64,000 bases of DNA from a virus (taxonomy: Duplodnaviria > Caudoviricetes): IMG/VR virus record IMGVR_UViG_3300029305_004466; one strand, 5' to 3'. This document shows, piece after piece, positions 23,658-58,686 of this stretch. The notes below the pieces were generated by a model. It searched no databases and was not told the DNA's origin. It saw only the letters and a list, made by a program, of their open reading frames with translations. Position 1 is the stretch's first letter. Each line of letters opens with the position of its first letter. The position numbers and the translations under genes were made by a program.

Positions 23658-25145
23658 TCATACCTCTCTATTGATAGAAGCTAAAATCTCAGATAATTGT
23701 GTTATCTGTTCTTGCATCAATACATTTTGTGCTGTAAGTATTTCATTTTGTTTTTTAAGTGTGGCGATTTCTTCATTTACTTGTTCTACTGGTACATTTA
23801 CAAAATAGTATGTAGGTTCGTATTTAATACAACATAAAACAGAGATATTAGCAGGTTGATATATAGTTTCTGTATTACTATCTTCATCAGAACCCCTGTA
23901 CAAAACTGGAGTCCCCCAAGTTTCTGTTTCTATTTGAGCACTTTTTTCTTGTTTACCTATATCTGTTATAGCACCTTTAAGATAGTCGCCTGTTAAATCT
24001 GGAACTGCAAATGTTGTAATTCCGTCACCACCATAGTATTTTACAGTACCGAACTCATTTATAAAATGCTGAGCTAAGTATGGATAGTCTTCAATATTGT
24101 ATTCTGAGCCATCACATATAAGATAGTGTTTTGGAGCTTTAGTCCCTATGTGGGTAAGTATATGCCCTATAGGAGTATCTTCAATACCTGAGTTTTCATT
24201 TATATGTTCTAATGGGTCGATTGCTTGAGCTCGCCCTATTTCTTGTACGTTGAAATAACAGTCAATCATTGTACCAATGTTTGAATCTATTGGATTAATA
24301 TACGTTGAACTGCTACGTACATATATTATTTTAATAGCAACATACATATCTTCTACAGGACTAACTATTAATGTACTAGAAGTCATCCCAGTAGCATCAC
24401 TACCAAAATCATTAGTAAATGGACATAACCAAATATTATTACATAAATTTATATCATTTGTTATGTCCTGTAGCGTACAGTAAATATAACCGCCACCATT
24501 TCTATAAACAGAAAGTGCTGCACTTATTTGATATGACTTACCTGCTCTTAATCTAACTGAGTAATTTTCTAAGTTATAACTTATATTAGAGCTTTTTGAA
24601 ACAATAGTATCAAATTTTACAAACTCATTTAAAACTGCTGTTTGCGAATCGCTCATTTTTAACGATATGTACTCAAGTTCTGTATTTACATATTTCTGAT
24701 ATAAGTTAATGTTATTGACTTTGTTTTTTATAGTATCAATAGTTTTGGTTTTATCTTCTACATAAATACCATTCTCTGTTTGTTGAATAGCATTATTGTC
24801 AGCAGGATTTATTTTTACTTCAGATACTGAAGGAACATATAAACCGTCTTCTTTTTTAATAATAGCATTACCAGTCACGGTACTGATATTGGTATCACTA
24901 ACATCAGGTACATATATGCCATCGTCTTTTGCAACGATGGCATTACCTTCTTCTGCACTTATGTTAACACTTTTTGAATCAACATATTTCTTTGTTGCTG
25001 GGTGATAGTCTGCTGTAGGAGTATACTCTATGATATTAGTTTTTGATAAAAAATTCTCTGCTGCATAACTAACACCAGAAGTATAGTCAATATATTCTTT
25101 TAATTGACGAACAGTATTTAATAACTGTTGCTTCGATACTCCCAT
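23658..25145 (-). CDS. Fibre protein with collar domain and NAI..K.DG.YV repeats
   Basis: Three IS...NAI..KxDG(I/L)YV repeats, collar motif, C-terminal coiled coil. Confidence 0.75.
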   Translation of the reverse strand: MGVSKQQLLNTVRQLKEYIDYTSGVSYAAENFLSKTNIIEYTPTADYHPATKKYVDSKSVNISAEEGNAIVAKDDGIYVPDVSDTNISTVTGNAIIKKEDGLYVPSVSEVKINPADNNAIQQTENGIYVEDKTKTIDTIKNKVNNINLYQKYVNTELEYISLKMSDSQTAVLNEFVKFDTIVSKSSNISYNLENYSVRLRAGKSYQISAALSVYRNGGGYIYCTLQDITNDINLCNNIWLCPFTNDFGSDATGMTSSTLIVSPVEDMYVAIKIIYVRSSSTYINPIDSNIGTMIDCYFNVQEIGRAQAIDPLEHINENSGIEDTPIGHILTHIGTKAPKHYLICDGSEYNIEDYPYLAQHFINEFGTVKYYGGDGITTFAVPDLTGDYLKGAITDIGKQEKSAQIETETWGTPVLYRGSDEDSNTETIYQPANISVLCCIKYEPTYYFVNVPVEQVNEEIATLKKQNEILTAQNVLMQEQITQLSEILASINREV

Positions 25146-42666: not shown

Positions 42667-43842
42667 TTAATTATTCAGAATGATAGTTCTTTCTGGTGTT
42701 GCGAAGGACTTAGCCATGCTAATGTTCTTAGCAGAGCAGATTGCACGACCTTCGTTGTAAGTACCGAAACCATAACGTTCGATAACCTTAACGTTATTGA
42801 GGTCTCTTGCTGGGTCACGGAATTCTTCAGTCTTGAGGTCTTCCTTAACAATCTGAACACCTACGTTGTTAGCATCTACACAGAACATATCGAAGGTCTT
42901 GTTAACCTTGTCGATAGGAGCGAATGGAGATAAGCTAACGTTAAATGCAAATGGGATACGACCCTGAATGGATTCAGGACCAAGCTTGAACTGAGCGTTT
43001 GGCATTTCTCTCTTAACTTCACGGTCAAATGGAGCAGTAAGAGAACCAGTTAAGCCGTTACGAGCAAATACAGTCCATACTAACGGATGCATGATTAAGT
43101 CTGTTGGAGTATACTCGTTGTTGTATACACAGATGATTAAGTCAAGTAAATCGTCAATGGACATAGTATCGTTTGGATTGCCTTCAAAGTCAAGACCAGT
43201 AGTACCTGCTTCTGGGAACTGACCTCTTAAGCTGTTATCAAATACTGTCCAACCATGACGCTTCCATTCGTCAAATGCCTTCTGCTCTTTAAGACGAGCC
43301 ATTGCTCTACCTGCCTCAGATAAGAGAACAGAGATAAGGTCGAATTCCAAATCCTTCTGAAGTTCGTCAGTATACTGAATTCTGACACCACTCTTACCAA
43401 CATGGATAAGAGAATTCTTTGCCAGATTCCAGTCTACGCTTTCTTCTGGGATTTCCTGACCTTCGGCAACGTCATGAGCTCTCATAACACCGATGGACGG
43501 GAACATAACAGCCTGACCATTCTTAAGTCTAATCTTCTTATAGAACTTAGAAGCAAGATATACAGGGTCAGCAGCCTTTCTCATAGTACCGATGATAATT
43601 CTTGGAATTAACACCTTAGCCTGTGGAGAAGCTACGAAATCCTTGAATGTAAAGCCCGGTACGTTCTTACCGTCAAGAACTTTAGTGAATGCATCAAATA
43701 CCTTGGCATCGTTTTCTGTCATCTGATAATCTTCGATATCGGAATCTGTAAGTGGTAAGCCTCTTTCCAGCTTATCCTGAATGGACTTCTGAAGCTCTGC
43801 ATTACGAGATTCCATTTGGTCTAAAACATTTAAAATACTCAT
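42667..43842 (-). CDS. Major capsid protein
   Basis: Follows protease/accessory genes; VAEGQEIPE..VGKSG..E...D..FDLI...GRAMAR; ERYGFG; strong codon bias. Confidence 0.9.
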   Translation of the reverse strand: MSILNVLDQMESRNAELQKSIQDKLERGLPLTDSDIEDYQMTENDAKVFDAFTKVLDGKNVPGFTFKDFVASPQAKVLIPRIIIGTMRKAADPVYLASKFYKKIRLKNGQAVMFPSIGVMRAHDVAEGQEIPEESVDWNLAKNSLIHVGKSGVRIQYTDELQKDLEFDLISVLLSEAGRAMARLKEQKAFDEWKRHGWTVFDNSLRGQFPEAGTTGLDFEGNPNDTMSIDDLLDLIICVYNNEYTPTDLIMHPLVWTVFARNGLTGSLTAPFDREVKREMPNAQFKLGPESIQGRIPFAFNVSLSPFAPIDKVNKTFDMFCVDANNVGVQIVKEDLKTEEFRDPARDLNNVKVIERYGFGTYNEGRAICSAKNISMAKSFATPERTIILNN

Positions 43843-46651: not shown

Positions 46652-48505
46652 TTATGAACCATCAATGTATATGGTAGCGTTCATTTTACATTTCAGATAA
46701 TTCGTAATGGAATCTCCGAATAAGTTAACTCTAATTGTAACCATGTCACTAACACTACCTTTTGATGTTGAATATATATTGACACCAGTTAAGTCATCAT
46801 GTATATTCTGACAAAGTTTTACGGAGTTCTTGATAAGCATTTCATCAACGACTTTGATTAAGGATTCGTCTTCGATTTTTGCTTTTACTGTATACGAAAT
46901 GTCTTTAATATGTTTTGCTACTATACTTTCAACATTGGATTGTAATATTTGTTGTCTATTAGTATAACAATTTATTACATATTTGTCCATTTCATCATTG
47001 ATTTTATTTACATTATCTTTTATGAGACCGATAATAGCATTGTAATTATCTTTTCCTGAGGATGAAGACTTCTTAGTAGGAGTACGTCCTCCAGAATTTT
47101 TCTCTTTGTTGTTTGTTTCTTTACTTCCTGTACCGCCATTAGCTGAAGCAGTAGCTTTAGCCGTCTGCACATCAAGTTCAGCTTGAAGTTTAAGTGTTTC
47201 TCTCGTAATGAGTTCAACAAATAATTTCTCTCTGTCACCATCAGCAATAGGGTCCATACCAAGTAAGTCACGCATTTCATCTTCAGTAATCGCATTGTGT
47301 TCATATTTATAAATGGCGTGAACTTCTTTCTTGATTTTAACATCTACGTCATTATCGTGGAATTTAAGTTCAGCGATTTGGTCTGGATTAAGTACTGGGT
47401 CATATCCGCCTTCCATTAAGATTTCTTTTACTATGAATGAGTTAAAGAACATCTCAATGATTTTGGTAATAGCACGGATTCTGTCAGCCATTTCTGATGT
47501 CATATTGTCACCAGTAGAACGATTGGCTGTATCACCACGACCCCACATAATAGCAGGAATGCCCATACCAGAGAATACTCTATCTTCCATATACCTTAAA
47601 TATGGTTCTGCGTCAATAACTTTATCAGAAGCAATAGGAGTTATTGTAACTCTTTCTGTAGTAACAATACCACCTTCAACATCCATATTGTTGATTTCTT
47701 CGATAATCTTATCCACTTCCGCTTCCGTACCCGGCTGGTCCTCTGTACCAACTTTTACATGATGGAATGGATAAATATTACGATACATCATTTTAAGAAC
47801 GTTTTCTTCTGCTTGTCTTAATGCTCGTATATCATCAAGGACTGGCACTAAGAAACTTGTTCCGTATGCATTACCTTTTGGTCTTTTGTAATAGAAATGG
47901 ATTACATCTTCAGGATTAAATTCCTGTTCACCTGCATCTGTTTCCTGTTTCCACTTACTAATAACGCCATGCTCATCTCTCATTACAGTCATTGTAGAAG
48001 GATTAGCACAGAAATAACCTACAACAGGTTCTTTTCCTGCAAGCCCTTGAACATTAACACCTTGAGGTAATAAGTTAACGTCATTACTTCTTGACTTAAC
48101 AATCATACAGTTTCCGTATTTAACTAAGTCTTCCGCAATATCCATTAAGAATTGATTTGTCGGAGTACTTGTCGCTTCTGCTATGTATTCAAGCCTAAGC
48201 TTTAAATAGTCAACTGTATTAGTGTCTTTCCCGTAAAAACTATACCCTTCTTTAAAAATCTGGTCAACATATTTATCAACACCTTGACGTACATAAGAAT
48301 CTGTATCGTAGGCATTTTGTATGTCTTCCATATTAAAATCTGGTTCTTCAAAGTCTGTATCATCAGTAGTCTTATAAACAAGCTGTTTAATAAACTCTGA
48401 TGCTAATTCTCTTTGTCCCCCAGAAGAAGCGTCCTTAGAAACAGGTGCTGCGGGAAGGAGTTCTTTGAAAAATGTATTGGCTATGAACCGTTTGATTTTA
48501 TTCAT
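46652..48505 (-). CDS. Portal protein
   Basis: LVKYGNC, FNPEDVIHF...AYGTS, GIP..WG; between terminase and protease. Confidence 0.85.
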   Translation of the reverse strand: MNKIKRFIANTFFKELLPAAPVSKDASSGGQRELASEFIKQLVYKTTDDTDFEEPDFNMEDIQNAYDTDSYVRQGVDKYVDQIFKEGYSFYGKDTNTVDYLKLRLEYIAEATSTPTNQFLMDIAEDLVKYGNCMIVKSRSNDVNLLPQGVNVQGLAGKEPVVGYFCANPSTMTVMRDEHGVISKWKQETDAGEQEFNPEDVIHFYYKRPKGNAYGTSFLVPVLDDIRALRQAEENVLKMMYRNIYPFHHVKVGTEDQPGTEAEVDKIIEEINNMDVEGGIVTTERVTITPIASDKVIDAEPYLRYMEDRVFSGMGIPAIMWGRGDTANRSTGDNMTSEMADRIRAITKIIEMFFNSFIVKEILMEGGYDPVLNPDQIAELKFHDNDVDVKIKKEVHAIYKYEHNAITEDEMRDLLGMDPIADGDREKLFVELITRETLKLQAELDVQTAKATASANGGTGSKETNNKEKNSGGRTPTKKSSSSGKDNYNAIIGLIKDNVNKINDEMDKYVINCYTNRQQILQSNVESIVAKHIKDISYTVKAKIEDESLIKVVDEMLIKNSVKLCQNIHDDLTGVNIYSTSKGSVSDMVTIRVNLFGDSITNYLKCKMNATIYIDGS

Positions 48506-48556: not shown

Positions 48557-49585
48557 TTAAGTGTAGCTAATTGTAGCATAAACCTTTCTTAACTGTTGTT
48601 TTTCTGCCATTAATTTTTCCATAGAATTCACAAAAAAGGAATTCCCCATCAATGTTTTATTTATATTTTCAATTGAGTTGTCTGTTTCTTTTTCAAAAAA
48701 AGATATTTTAGATAATAAGTAACTTCCTTCTCTAGAGGTTTCTGATACTGTATTATAGAATTCATTTAAGTCTTTTCGTTTAATATAGTAATTATATAAC
48801 GCTTTTCTCGTAGTATCAATACTTTGTTGCATATCATATGAATTACTTCTTGCGTTTATTTCGTCATCTACCTCCAAAAAGAGACGTTGTATCATAGGAG
48901 TTAATATTGGATTATTCACACCATTTTCATCTCTTAAATATGCAACTTGCTCTAATTTAGTACATGCTTCATCTATTTTTACGCTATATGTATTTATGGA
49001 TTTATTCAATACTGAATCAACGGATAATGCTAAATAGTTAATGCCTTTTCCCTGCTTTTCTTTTTCTACAAGCACGGCAGTCATTTCAGCATCTTTTTGC
49101 TTGCATTCTTCGTTTGTAATATTTGAAGTACCATAGTATAAAATTTTTAAAGTATCGCTAATAATATTTATTCTCTCTTTTTCGTTTTCCAGTAATTCGA
49201 TAATTTCTGGGATTTGGCTTTTGCCAATATTTGCTTTATGTGCGTTAAGAAATTCTTTAGCATATTCATTATTTTTTGCTCTTAACGCATTTACAAAAGA
49301 GTTAATATTTGAATATGTATCATGTGTTTCATTATCGAACTCTTTGCATAATCTGTCAATCATTTCGTTTATGATGTCGATATTTTCATTTAAGTTTTCC
49401 AGTACAGCATTAGGTAAATTATTTAAAAAACTTTTTAGTGTAGTTGAATAACTAGCCTTATTAATGTATTGATTGATATTAATAGGCTCTGTTTGTTCAA
49501 CTGGCTTATTGAATTTTTCGTATTTAAGATTGGGACGGTATCCTATGACCGCCCCAGAATCTATTAATTGTTCTTTGATTTCCAT
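48557..49585 (-). CDS. Hypothetical helical protein between terminase and portal
   Basis: 342-aa ORF overlapping the terminase stop. Confidence 0.55.
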   Translation of the reverse strand: MEIKEQLIDSGAVIGYRPNLKYEKFNKPVEQTEPININQYINKASYSTTLKSFLNNLPNAVLENLNENIDIINEMIDRLCKEFDNETHDTYSNINSFVNALRAKNNEYAKEFLNAHKANIGKSQIPEIIELLENEKERINIISDTLKILYYGTSNITNEECKQKDAEMTAVLVEKEKQGKGINYLALSVDSVLNKSINTYSVKIDEACTKLEQVAYLRDENGVNNPILTPMIQRLFLEVDDEINARSNSYDMQQSIDTTRKALYNYYIKRKDLNEFYNTVSETSREGSYLLSKISFFEKETDNSIENINKTLMGNSFFVNSMEKLMAEKQQLRKVYATISYT

Positions 49586-51489
49586 TAAAAAGACCTCCTC
49601 TGGAATGATGGAACTCTTTTATTTTGCCTTCGAACTGGAGTAATACTGATAATACCTTCTTTTTCGGAAGTTTTAATTATCTTTACAAAAGGCTCTTCTT
49701 GGTTTTCACCAATTTCACGGCTCTTAACATGCTCATCTCTTGAATCCAGAGTTCCAATAAATACTGTTTTGATAGAATAAACTTGCTTTAATAAGCTACC
49801 ATACTTTTGCTCAAATAGCAATAGGGCAAGATTCATGGCATCAATTGCGTGTTCATTCTCATCTGTATAGACAGGCATACCAGTACTACTTATGGATTTT
49901 ACTCTATATTCTTCTAATTGAGAAATCATTGATTTATCTGAAGGGTCAAGAATAACTTTACCTTTTTCAAATAAATTAACTGAGTTGTTAACCATGAATG
50001 GCTTAAGGTGTTTCTGGTCTTTTTTCTTAGTATATGGGTCACGAACTTCAATCTTTTGAGAGAATTGATAACCAATAACCTTATCTGCTAAGCCAGTTTC
50101 AGGATGTTCCATACCATATTTATGAAGCATTTCTAATTGTACTTCACCGTAACCACGGTCAATACCTATCCAATCAAACTGGTATTCATCATTCAGTTCT
50201 ATGATTTTGTTCATTGCATTGACGTAAGTAAAATCAGAACGTGGAACTTCTATTCTGAATAACATCTTAAACATAGGAACAATGCGTCCTTCATGGTCTT
50301 GATGGAATCTATCAAGTTCCATGCATACCATATTTGTTGCTGCTGAATATTTATCCCAGTCAACTCCAAGTATTCTAATATTTTGCCCATGCGTTCTTGT
50401 AAGATAAGATTTCCTATCTTCTTTGGACCATTTAGTAATGTATCTATATTTAAGGCGTTCACCTTCCATAATAGCTGCATTGATGAATTTCTTCTGGTAT
50501 ACACCCATTTCTTCTTCACCGAATTCAGCCATAACTTCTTGAGTATATCTCATGTCAGATAATTCATCTCTAATATCTTCAAGATAAGTTTGTTGAGTAT
50601 CTGGATTTATCTTTAATAATTCTTTATTAACGTTGGATGGAGCATATACTTCTGTCCAACCATTACCTTCGCCAATCGCTTTTTCTTCTACTTGATAACC
50701 ACTGAAGCGATTATTTTTAATATCTTCTGCTGTTGGGAAATATCTCTTAGAGGCATTAATACACCAACGGTAATATTCTTCGTGCTTACCAGATGGCGTG
50801 GAAGCACAGATAAGTCTAATACGTTCTGGAGCTTCATTTCTAATATTTAAGATATTCGTAATCTGATTAGAACCTATGTAGTCGCACTCGTCAAGGATAA
50901 GTAAATCTGCTCTTTGACCACGAGTAGAGTTAGCACCGCCAGATGAGTTGTTAGCACCTGCGGTTAAACCTAAAATATTAGAAACAATACCATTAATAGT
51001 AAGGTTTAAATTATGATGTACGTCTCTTGTTATTAATGACTTTAACACCGGAGACATCTCAATCAACTGGTGTAAACGCTTGAAGATTAAGTCAATCTGC
51101 GTTTCATATGGAGTTGCTATAATAATATCGTATTGGTTATTCGGACCTCTATTATATTGTGTGTACGCAAACCATAAAATAAGTACACACATAGAGTCTG
51201 ATTTACCAAGTCTTCGTCCAAGTCTTAATACAAGCTTTTTAGAACGCTTACCTTCTTGGATAATTACATCTTGATAATCTCTAGCTTCCCAGTCAAGATA
51301 AACTTTAGCCCATAATACAGGGTTGTTTGTAATTGTATATTCCAACGCTTCTTTGAAATTTAACCCGTATTGCTTTTGAACAAAATCTACCTTTTTGACT
51401 ATATTCTTATCTAAAGGAATCAAAAGATTCATTATCTGATTGCATTCTATATCATTTAATTGTCCTATTGTTTGTGCTACAGCTGCCAT
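49585..51489 (-). CDS. terL: Terminase large subunit
   Basis: Walker A GRRLGKS, Walker B LLILDECD, coupling motif ASTP, nuclease GVDW...EHAIDA. Confidence 0.93.
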   Translation of the reverse strand: MAAVAQTIGQLNDIECNQIMNLLIPLDKNIVKKVDFVQKQYGLNFKEALEYTITNNPVLWAKVYLDWEARDYQDVIIQEGKRSKKLVLRLGRRLGKSDSMCVLILWFAYTQYNRGPNNQYDIIIATPYETQIDLIFKRLHQLIEMSPVLKSLITRDVHHNLNLTINGIVSNILGLTAGANNSSGGANSTRGQRADLLILDECDYIGSNQITNILNIRNEAPERIRLICASTPSGKHEEYYRWCINASKRYFPTAEDIKNNRFSGYQVEEKAIGEGNGWTEVYAPSNVNKELLKINPDTQQTYLEDIRDELSDMRYTQEVMAEFGEEEMGVYQKKFINAAIMEGERLKYRYITKWSKEDRKSYLTRTHGQNIRILGVDWDKYSAATNMVCMELDRFHQDHEGRIVPMFKMLFRIEVPRSDFTYVNAMNKIIELNDEYQFDWIGIDRGYGEVQLEMLHKYGMEHPETGLADKVIGYQFSQKIEVRDPYTKKKDQKHLKPFMVNNSVNLFEKGKVILDPSDKSMISQLEEYRVKSISSTGMPVYTDENEHAIDAMNLALLLFEQKYGSLLKQVYSIKTVFIGTLDSRDEHVKSREIGENQEEPFVKIIKTSEKEGIISITPVRRQNKRVPSFQRRSF

Positions 51490-57207: not shown

Positions 57208-57750
57208 ATGGCAAACAACATCACAGGTAGTATTATTATTACCAACAAGACAGCAGAACTCACAGAAGAGGAAAGAATGGAATGTCTTAAAAAGGCAATG
57301 GATAGAATTACATTCCTCGAAGGCGTTGACAAAACATGGAAGGACTATGAACATGATATGCGTATGCTCAAGGCTATTGAAGATGGTGAGTTAGAGCCAG
57401 AATTTATTGCTCTTCTCACATTATCTAATAGTGAAAGAGAGCACGTAGAGAAGAACATGGAATACTACAGAATAGGTAGTGGCTTACATGACGCTCTATA
57501 TGTTAATCCTATCCCAACTGTAGAGTCTAGTCTTAGCAACGAAGAAACAGAAAGATTCGTAGCTATGCTTGAGGCTGAAGAAGAGTCATATCCATGGGAT
57601 GATGATTGGTATGAACAGTGGAGGGATGAACAAGCGGCATTACCAGACTATGGCTGTATTGACATTGATTGGGATGCCATGGATAAAGTAGTTGAAGAAC
57701 TTGACCTCATATATGCTGATTATATTGACAAGGAATTACCGTTCAATTAA
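57208..57750 (+). CDS. Highly acidic hypothetical protein
   Basis: AAAGGAG RBS before ATG 57208; D/E/W-rich C-terminus. Confidence 0.65.
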   Translation: MANNITGSIIITNKTAELTEEERMECLKKAMDRITFLEGVDKTWKDYEHDMRMLKAIEDGELEPEFIALLTLSNSEREHVEKNMEYYRIGSGLHDALYVNPIPTVESSLSNEETERFVAMLEAEEESYPWDDDWYEQWRDEQAALPDYGCIDIDWDAMDKVVEELDLIYADYIDKELPFN

Positions 57751-57812
57751 TTAGCCTACAGCTCCCTAGTATACGGAGCTATATAAATAGTATACTACTA
57801 CCCCTATATACC

Positions 57813-57865
57813 CCCGTCTACATGGTATGAGTCCATGTACTGATGATGGCATGAGCCGAAACGGG
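57813..57865 (+). ncRNA. Hammerhead ribozyme, type III (copy 1)
   Basis: CCCGUC^ / stem I UACAUGG-CCAUGUA / CUGAUGA(U) / stem II GGC-GCC / GAAA / CGGG; predicted cleavage after 57818. Confidence 0.92.
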
Positions 57866-57924
57866 ATTATCAGTAAACTACTACATATATGTACCCGTTG
57901 CATAACAAAGGAAAGGAGTTCACT

Positions 57925-58248
57925 ATGATGAACACAAATTTAATTAATTTCGCAACTAATAAGGCTATCAATGACCATGATGGTAGAAAAGATGAATTAG
58001 CTGGTGTATGTTTACTTGCTAATGGCTTACTCGGAGCTATCCCTGCTACAAATAAGGCGTTCAGTATCAATGAATTGTATGTGGGTAAAGATGGCATGGC
58101 ACACATTAGTACCAATTCTATCAGTGGTACAGTAATGCCTTGGAATGACCTTACTACAAAAGAGGGTATCAAGGAATTTAATGATACCCTTACATTTGAT
58201 TCTAATAAGATAGTAAAGGTTATCTTCATTAAGGTTGTAGAAGCTTAA
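57925..58248 (+). CDS. Hypothetical protein enclosed between the two hammerheads
   Basis: AAAGGAG RBS before ATG 57925; 107 aa. Confidence 0.7.
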   Translation: MMNTNLINFATNKAINDHDGRKDELAGVCLLANGLLGAIPATNKAFSINELYVGKDGMAHISTNSISGTVMPWNDLTTKEGIKEFNDTLTFDSNKIVKVIFIKVVEA

Positions 58249-58280
58249 AGCTTATGGTCCTGAGCATGACCTTAAAAGGC

Positions 58281-58339
58281 TCCCGTCTATATAGGGTAGT
58301 GCCTATATACTGATGATGGCAGCTATAGCCGAAACGGGA
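58281..58339 (+). ncRNA. Hammerhead ribozyme, type III (copy 2)
   Basis: UCCCGUC^ / stem I UAUAUAGG-CCUAUAUA / CUGAUGA(U) / GGC-GCC / GAAA / CGGGA; predicted cleavage after 58287; stem I covaries with copy 1. Confidence 0.92.
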
Positions 58340-58407
58340 TTATCAGCTAACCTAACAAAAATACATATAACGTATACCCGTTATACGAAAAGAAAGGAGA
58401 TAGTATT

Positions 58408-58686
58408 ATGAGCTATCAGACAAACAATCAGGAAATCAAGGAAATGAGACACATCAGCTACAAGATTCAGAGTGCTGAAAGAAGAAAACAGAGAATTTAC
58501 AATGCCATCTGTACCGTATTAGGGTACATTGGTATGGCTATATTCTCTATAGTAACGGCTCTTTTCTTCATGTATGCATGGATTGAGGAAGACAGAAGAT
58601 GGAATCCACCTGTTCTCGATACGATTGATTATGTTAATCCATATGAGACACCTGATGAGGAACCTTGGTATGTACCAGAAGCATAA
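58408..58686 (+). CDS. Single-TM membrane protein
   Basis: AAAGGAG RBS; hydrophobic ICTVLGYIGMAIFSIVTALFFMYAW. Confidence 0.7.
   Translation: MSYQTNNQEIKEMRHISYKIQSAERRKQRIYNAICTVLGYIGMAIFSIVTALFFMYAWIEEDRRWNPPVLDTIDYVNPYETPDEEPWYVPEA

Follow-up and report, generated by a model that had tools for sequence, protein, structure and literature searches.

Two type III hammerhead ribozymes flank a small gene in an operon of a jumbo phage and probably cut its transcript into single-gene messages

We analysed a stretch of 64,000 nucleotides, here called the window, which is the minus strand of bases 86759-150758 in a 210,290-bp IMG/VR virus record. The record is the genome of an uncultured jumbo phage, rated 100% complete by CheckV and with a GC content of 33.6%; a blastn search against GenBank phages gave no match. 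The minus strand of the window carries the structural module of the phage. Divergent from this module, an operon of small genes without known family starts near 57208 on the plus strand and heads toward a PF05183 RNA polymerase gene approximately 4 kb past the window end. Each of the first two intergenic gaps of the operon is occupied by a hammerhead motif on the coding strand, and these two motifs are referred to as HH1 and HH2. The features of the locus, in window positions, are listed here.

1-57054, minus strand: structural module
42667-43842, minus strand: major head protein gene of the structural module
46652-48505, minus strand: portal gene of the structural module
49585-51489, minus strand: large terminase gene of the structural module
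57208-57750, plus strand: first ORF of the operon, 180 aa, the upstream neighbour of HH1
57760-57780, plus strand: hairpin AGCUCC-N9-GGAGCU, 32 nt upstream of HH1 stem III
57813-57865, plus strand: HH1, type III hammerhead, predicted to cut between 57818 and 57819
57866-57873, plus strand: anti-core segment AUUAUCAG, complementary to CUGAUGAU at 57840-57847 in HH1
57888-57904, plus strand: small hairpin with CCCGU in its loop, the letters of the stem III 5' strand
57925-58248, plus strand: the bracketed ORF107, 107 aa, with an AGGAG ribosome-binding site at 57914-57918
58256-58282, plus strand: small H-type pseudoknot of about 27 nt, 8 nt past the ORF107 stop codon and abutting HH2
58281-58339, plus strand: HH2, type III hammerhead, predicted to cut between 58287 and 58288
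58339-58346, plus strand: anti-core segment AUUAUCAG, complementary to CUGAUGAU at 58310-58317 in HH2
58371-58387, plus strand: hairpin CGUAUA-CCCGU-UAUACG in the ORF92 leader
58408-58686, plus strand: next ORF (ORF92), 92 aa with a hydrophobic segment, which would receive the leader processed by HH2

Relatives of the phage were collected through the portal protein (approximately 63% identity), which yielded two complete genomes of about 210 kb among others, and further contigs were added through homologues of ORF107. Gene orthology was assigned by tblastn, while ribozymes were identified by Rfam at gathering score together with pattern and model searches. Homologues of ORF107 were 74-85% identical, and Pfam, PHROGs, a search of 5.8 billion proteins and the ESM Atlas gave no lead to the function or fold of this protein. 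ORF92 has a weak match to PHROG 21405 and homologues in all of the relatives. The 180-aa ORF matched nothing in Pfam or PHROGs and had no homologue in the relatives, and a protein-based search of IMG/VR for loci that combine it with ORF107 found none. On the plus strand between the operon genes we found no terminator and no convincing promoter, as the sigma-70 and terminator scans stayed at background level. A promoter-like ACTACTA/ATATA motif that recurs near the hammerheads was rejected, having no genome-wide enrichment.

The polymerase domain beyond the window end, downstream along the operon (PF05183 'RdRP', of the YonO/crAss-like single-subunit RNA polymerase type) was located in L132 (G000:82535-83113), in the sense of the window's plus strand. 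In the relative L067, a 1275-aa gene of the PF05183 YonO/crAss-like type closes the operon. Rfam at gathering score found only ROOL RNA and tRNAs in the genome outside the window. The ROOL RNA is full-length (305 bits; L074:13070-13714, minus strand) and adjoins a cluster of 11 tRNA genes (L074:3130-12904); this region of the phage, at approximately 62.8-73.4 kb of G000, lies outside the window, and the relative G002 (L065) carries ROOL, tmRNA and tRNAs at the matching position.

The original prediction described two complete type III hammerheads with an identical core and compensatory changes in stem I, and our analysis bore out both their motifs and their coordinates. In HH1, stem III is formed by 57813-57817 paired with 57861-57865, the cleavage triplet GUC lies at 57816-57818, and stem I (UACAUGG/CCAUGUA, 57819-57839) is followed by the core CUGAUGA (57840-57846), an extra U (57847), stem II (GGC-AUGA-GCC, 57848-57857) and GAAA (57858-57861). 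HH2 has the same core. Its stem III pairs UCCCGU (58281-58286) with ACGGGA (58334-58339), its GUC triplet lies at 58285-58287, its stem I (UAUAUAGG/CCUAUAUA) shows the compensatory changes relative to HH1, and its stem II reads GGC-AGCUAUA-GCC. Both copies thus have a capped stem I of 7-8 bp, a capped stem II of 3 bp and an open stem III of 5-6 bp, and in ViennaRNA the hammerhead fold is the minimum-energy structure for each. The flanked 107-aa ORF with its own ribosome-binding site was likewise confirmed, as was the length of 469 nt for the piece between the predicted cuts (57819-58287). An alternative reading of the repeats as type I or type II hammerheads was rejected, as the downstream CCCGUU has no stem I partner after it and the GAAA strand is missing from the RF02276 alignment of HH2.

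The nucleotides of a type III core (C3 U4 G5 A6 N7 G8 A9 and G12 A13 A14) are present in both copies, and the U of the GUC triplet, which conforms to N-U-H, pairs with the last A of GAAA as the A15.1-U16.1 pair. The direct junction from A9 to the G10.1-C11.1 pair is interrupted by one inserted U in HH1 and HH2 and by UU in the relative G001; with it the motif deviates from the consensus but keeps the fold. Loop 2 (AUGA in HH1, AGCUAUA in HH2) fits the RNnA tertiary-contact motif (PMC2632901). When loop 1 was compared with the partner motif UNmYN (PMC2632901), the HH1 loop UAUGAGU was found to have the 5' U and to carry its pyrimidine last instead of penultimate. The HH2 loop GUAGUG does not fit the motif and departs from the consensus of its family, and it could pair with loop 2 (GUAG/CUAU). 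Topology, core, GUC site, capped stems I and II and the RNnA-type loop 2 are shared with Hammerhead_3 (RF00008), a viroid/satellite-type family, whereas the U between A9 and G10.1 (UU in G001), the 3-bp stem II and the location in a DNA phage instead of an RNA replicon are not. A precedent for the insertion is the CChMVd(+) hammerhead, which has an extra unpaired nucleotide, A10, at the same place between A9 and G10.1 and is active with a moderately lowered rate (PMC1636495; De la Pena & Flores 2001, cited there). In contrast to CChMVd(+), the extra base is here a U and is fixed in the whole phage family.

Rfam hammerhead models, the first check suggested by the original prediction, returned matches for both copies below threshold and no match in the window at the gathering score of Rfam 15. 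HH1 scored 22.8 bits with RF00008 against a cut-off of 48.5, and HH2 gave a partial match to RF02276 (24 bits against 37) whose alignment lacked the GAAA strand; the shortfall is due to the U insertion together with the short stem II. We examined by several other means whether the motifs were real. A three-helix descriptor found exactly HH1 and HH2 in the whole 210-kb genome, compared with 0.05 hits per simulated genome. These two hammerheads are the only ribozymes in this genome, and the further copies that the prediction had suggested looking for did not appear in its 210 kb. A covariance model built without HH2 recovered HH2 at 40 bits (E 9e-9). The exact string of core plus stem II occurred in 28 metagenome contigs and 24 IMG/VR contigs, all of which proved to be hammerheads of type III; their loop 1 (UAAAAGU) hardly varies, and their stems I and III vary freely. 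In each of 52 further contigs the family is present as a single copy, and its members, like HH1 and HH2, fall under the Rfam threshold; the 17 contigs scanned for other ribozymes at Rfam threshold (138 kb) contained none.

Covariation was assessed on 15 distinct family members, in which 96.1% of the cells were paired and 10 of the 17 pairs were changed on both sides, five of them in stem I and five in stem III. The resulting score was reached by none of 500 shuffles, and slid registers gave 26-43% pairing. The test covered stems I and III, as stem II was made invariant by the search pattern.

It could be argued that HH1 and HH2 are inactive look-alikes whose catalysis is destroyed by the inserted U and the 3-bp stem II, as they depart from the core consensus and score below the Rfam thresholds. 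However, all members of the family share the insertion and their stems I and III covary, a natural hammerhead with an extra base at this place is known to be active (PMC1636495), and the AUGA of loop 2 fits the RNnA motif (PMC2632901). We regard inactivity on these grounds as extremely improbable. Both copies were taken as real ribozymes because of the descriptor, the covariation, the covariance model, the CChMVd(+) precedent and the loop 2 motif, and by all of these sequence and structure measures HH1 and HH2 are genuine type III hammerheads.

Other matches and relatives of the motif were recorded along the way. A CTGATGA...GAAAC match at 23866-23890 on the minus strand of the window was dismissed as chance, since it lies inside a coding region and has no surrounding helices, and the pattern CUGAUGAU ... 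GAAAC ... AUUAUCAG gave only chance matches inside genes in IMG/VR. The closest outside copy of HH1 (L091:6-72) agrees with it in stem I, the core and the AUUAUCAG tail. Its stem III 5' strand reads CUCCAUC, which breaks the conserved C-G pair beside the cleavage site; decay of this copy or an assembly variant may account for the break. The commonest family member (L082:3403-3520, minus strand) recurs in more than 20 near-identical IMG/VR contigs of sample 3300045988, in gut phage contigs of 100-170 kb; the loop of its upstream hairpin repeats the letters of its own loop 1 (GGGUAAAAGUC), and a start codon follows at most 27 nt downstream. A second, unrelated set of hammerheads (L001-L021) includes a type III set with the sequence ACCCGUC-GGGCAG... 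and several type I copies located just 5' of ribosome-binding sites. This set also has a U inserted after A9, and such an insertion is therefore widespread among phage hammerheads.

Directly 3' of stem III, each copy is followed by the anti-core segment, which complements the CUGAUGA core; an unrelated copy of the G001 type carries CAUCAG at the same position. At least five contiguous Watson-Crick pairs with the core were found in 14 of 24 distinct 3' flanks, as compared with 13% of random or shuffled windows (P ~3e-7). Counted by lineage, the segment was present in 8 of 17, which leaves about half of the family lineages without it; five control segments gave 1-2 of 17. For uncut HH1 the hammerhead fold is the predicted minimum at -18.3 kcal/mol, and the same holds for uncut L066 hammerhead RNA. 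Once HH1 is cut, its 3' product is predicted to refold at -17.7 kcal/mol, with stem I and an anti-core hairpin, and comparison of the two values indicates that the loss of stem III would be almost fully repaid. We infer that the anti-core could serve as a product-release lock, which in this model would render the cut irreversible and leave the new 5'-OH end base-paired.

The same complementarity could in principle regulate the cut, if the anti-core and active folds competed during transcription and polymerase speed or a factor set the cleaved fraction, giving time-dependent expression. In the G001-type copy before cleavage, the active and anti-core folds are predicted to be equal in energy (-20.4 vs -20.5 kcal/mol), and the phage encodes its own RNA polymerase, the PF05183 gene. 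Moreover, natural hammerheads are adapted to act during transcription, and some of them are attenuated by alternative folds (PMC1636495). For HH1 and the L066 hammerhead, however, the uncut RNA has its predicted minimum in the active fold, no element that would bind a ligand or a protein was identified, and the anti-core is missing from half of the lineages, so that regulated cutting appears distinctly unlikely.

Folded elements also lie on the 5' side of both hammerheads and further into the leaders. Cleavage of HH1 would bring the hairpin at 57760-57780 close to the 3' terminus of the fragment upstream. The corresponding position before HH2 is taken by the pseudoknot, in which P1 is formed by GGUC/GACC and the loop GAGC pairs with a downstream GCUC. 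This element also occurs 5' of the pistol ribozymes in G001 and L066 and of hammerheads in seven other contigs (copies include L066:5851-5877 and, on the minus strand, L044:390-416, L085:308-334 and L083:680-706), and its general form is a 4-bp hairpin with the loop CYGAGCAW, whose GAGC(A) pairs with (U)GCUC after an A-rich linker. Across ten sequences, 94.4% of the cells were paired and 5 of the 9 pairs were changed on both sides, a score that none of 500 shuffles reached, and the covariation supports both helices. The phage contigs that carry it are diverse, and no Rfam family matches the pseudoknot. Other members of the hammerhead family have strong GC hairpins at its position. Located at what would be the 3' end of a cut upstream message, these folds may shield it against 3' exonucleases.

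On the 3' side, HH1 and HH2 are repeated together with approximately 60 nt of leader, so that the repeat unit reaches into the leader of the next gene and therefore behaves as a 5'-UTR module. Family members elsewhere lie 14-160 nt before a ribosome-binding site and start codon. The 'decoy' hairpin with CCCGU is confined to the three closely related copies HH1, HH2 and the L066 hammerhead, being absent from L091 and from the G001-type hammerhead.

The relatives were then compared for gene and ribozyme order, which is given here for this phage and four of them.

This phage: 180-aa ORF, HH1, ORF107, HH2, ORF92
L066 (195-kb contig): pistol, ORF107, hammerhead, ORF92, one gene, twister-P5
L069: pistol, ORF92, ORF107, twister-P5, p59145 homologue, with a hammerhead further on
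G001 (208 kb): pistol, ORF92, twister-P5, p59145 homologue; no ORF107; a hammerhead before the p62099 homologue
L067: ORF107, ORF92, separated by an 18-nt gap with no ribozyme

Pistol and twister-P5 ribozymes, both at Rfam threshold, and hammerheads thus share one operon in the relatives and stand around orthologous genes. Judged from these arrangements, cutting appears to be kept while the kind of ribozyme is not. The pair of like hammerheads around ORF107 is found in this phage only and is absent from all of the relatives examined, and L067, which has the same genes and no ribozyme, shows that cutting would be dispensable in some genomes. A separate observation concerns the 214-aa gene behind twister-P5 in L066 (L066:7275-7919), a stretch of which is 32% identical to ORF107; from this identity the gene is taken to be an ORF107 paralogue that is likewise preceded by a ribozyme.

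Such variability raises the question of whether the ribozymes are selfish or neutral passengers of shuffling gene cassettes, kept as harmless cargo or as homology for recombination. Their position and class vary between close relatives, ORF107 comes and goes and shifts its place relative to ORF92, and L067 lacks ribozymes entirely. The flank modules also swap sites: HH1 and the L066 hammerhead share their 5' flank (the hairpin of 57760-57780 and an AUAYAAAUA spacer), HH2 has the 5' flank of the pistols in L066 and G001, and its 3' leader corresponds to that of the L066 hammerhead. On the other hand, core, loops and covarying stems are intact across more than 50 contigs and the anti-core and upstream pseudoknot are maintained too, which argues for selection on RNA function. 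We therefore consider a passenger role rather unlikely.

Hammerhead cleavage leaves ends whose chemistry is right for ligation, and any such pair of ribozymes leaves RtcB-compatible ends. The original prediction accordingly proposed that the 469-nt piece (57819-58287) might have its ends joined, which would rebuild a hammerhead at the junction and give a circular mRNA. In such a circle ORF107 would be translatable and the junction hammerhead chimeric. Joining could proceed by reversal of the hammerhead reaction over the UCCCGU/ACGGGA helix or through a host RtcB-type ligase, and in a variant of this scheme the anti-core hairpin would prevent re-cutting, making the system a phage counterpart of engineered circular RNA expression by ribozymes plus RtcB. 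The proposed junction geometry stood up, in that UCCCGU of HH2 pairs perfectly with ACGGGA of HH1 over 6 bp, one more than in native HH1. Moreover, ORF107 lies between two self-cleaving ribozymes in L066, as does a two-gene block including ORF107 in L069. The circle itself fared less well. Neither RtcB nor Rnl2-type (PF09414) nor T4 Rnl1-type (PF09511) ligases were found in the phage, the PF09511 search having been run without a positive control. The class of the flanking ribozymes differs among relatives, so the rebuilt junction hammerhead is not conserved, and L067 has no ribozymes around ORF107 at all. Furthermore, the repeat unit consists of a hammerhead with the leader of the next gene, the anti-core hairpin is predicted to compete with re-formation of the active fold, and the predicted fold of the 469-nt piece leaves its ends out of hammerhead geometry. 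Clustered phage hammerheads also gave no circular or spliced product in the work of Perreault et al. 2011, who had raised the circle idea (PMC3088659). One contig encoding an identical ORF107 protein (n=1) was checked for cut-site ends and permuted junctions and was DNA identical to the window. No result here supports the 469-nt piece becoming a circle, and we consider that outcome very unlikely.

The explanation that we favour, with a probability of roughly 0.7, is that HH1 and HH2 cut the polycistronic transcript co-transcriptionally into single-gene mRNAs with ends protected by local folds. Division of the polycistron into separate units had also been part of the original prediction, and it fits all of the evidence. 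In this scheme, both hammerheads would be active in cis and would most likely cut as soon as they are transcribed, each cut parting an upstream from a downstream message. Toward its 3' end the upstream message would carry the hairpin (in the case of HH1) or the pseudoknot (in that of HH2), with a few more nucleotides leading to a terminal 2',3'-cyclic phosphate, and the downstream message would begin with a 5'-OH flush in the stem I hairpin. After departure of the 5' product, the anti-core is predicted to fold back on the CUGAUGA core; the resulting hairpin would lock the ribozyme in an inactive form, make the cut irreversible and provide the new 5' end with two stacked hairpins. ORF107 (107 aa) and ORF92 (92 aa) would thereby each receive an mRNA of their own with defined ends. 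The phage would gain message stability and translation that are independent of the upstream sequence, akin to a natural insulator. A role in single-gene processing has been proposed earlier in the literature (PMC3088659, PMC6765202).

The layout of genes flanked by ribozymes has been known in phages since 2011, when clustered hammerheads were found to bracket one gene or a short block of genes in prophages and were proposed to process the transcripts into single-gene mRNAs (Perreault et al. 2011; PMC3088659). As in those prophages, the hammerheads described here lie a few hundred nucleotides apart on the coding strand of a phage operon with changing genes. In contrast to them, they reside in an uncultured 210-kb jumbo phage, are both of type III and belong to an extra-U subfamily, to which our analysis adds the 3' anti-core segment and the 5' shielding folds. 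The operon of the relatives, with its pistol, twister-P5 and hammerhead ribozymes, resembles the mixed clusters of twister, pistol, hatchet and twister-sister near phage-type genes (PMC6765202), whereas this genome has two hammerheads only, and the comparison yields orthologous sites that differ in class. With at least two ribozymes on the coding strand within a few kb and with classes that interchange in relatives, the locus has the properties of a ribozyme-punctuated operon. Two co-oriented hammerheads, a unit of a few hundred nucleotides and ligatable ends are also typical of retrozymes and viroid-like RNAs (PMC7229834, PMC7761336). Unlike in those elements, the unit here is a conserved coding gene with its ribosome-binding site inside a DNA phage operon, and, unlike in retrozymes, relatives do not keep the pair of like hammerheads. 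Set against this known layout, the anti-core enrichment, the ribozyme-associated pseudoknot and the family below Rfam thresholds are modest additions.

The role of clustered self-cleaving ribozymes in phages has been described as "largely elusive" (PMC6765202). The relatives assembled here constitute a natural experiment, in which one set of small genes stands behind a hammerhead, a pistol, a twister or no ribozyme at all, and the accessory folds, namely the upstream hairpin or pseudoknot and the downstream anti-core, are separable by mutation, one at a time. A practical warning is that more than 50 phage hammerheads fall under Rfam's curated thresholds. If the anti-core does act as a lock, it would provide a design rule for synthetic insulators and would explain how hammerheads with a short stem III cut irreversibly in cells.
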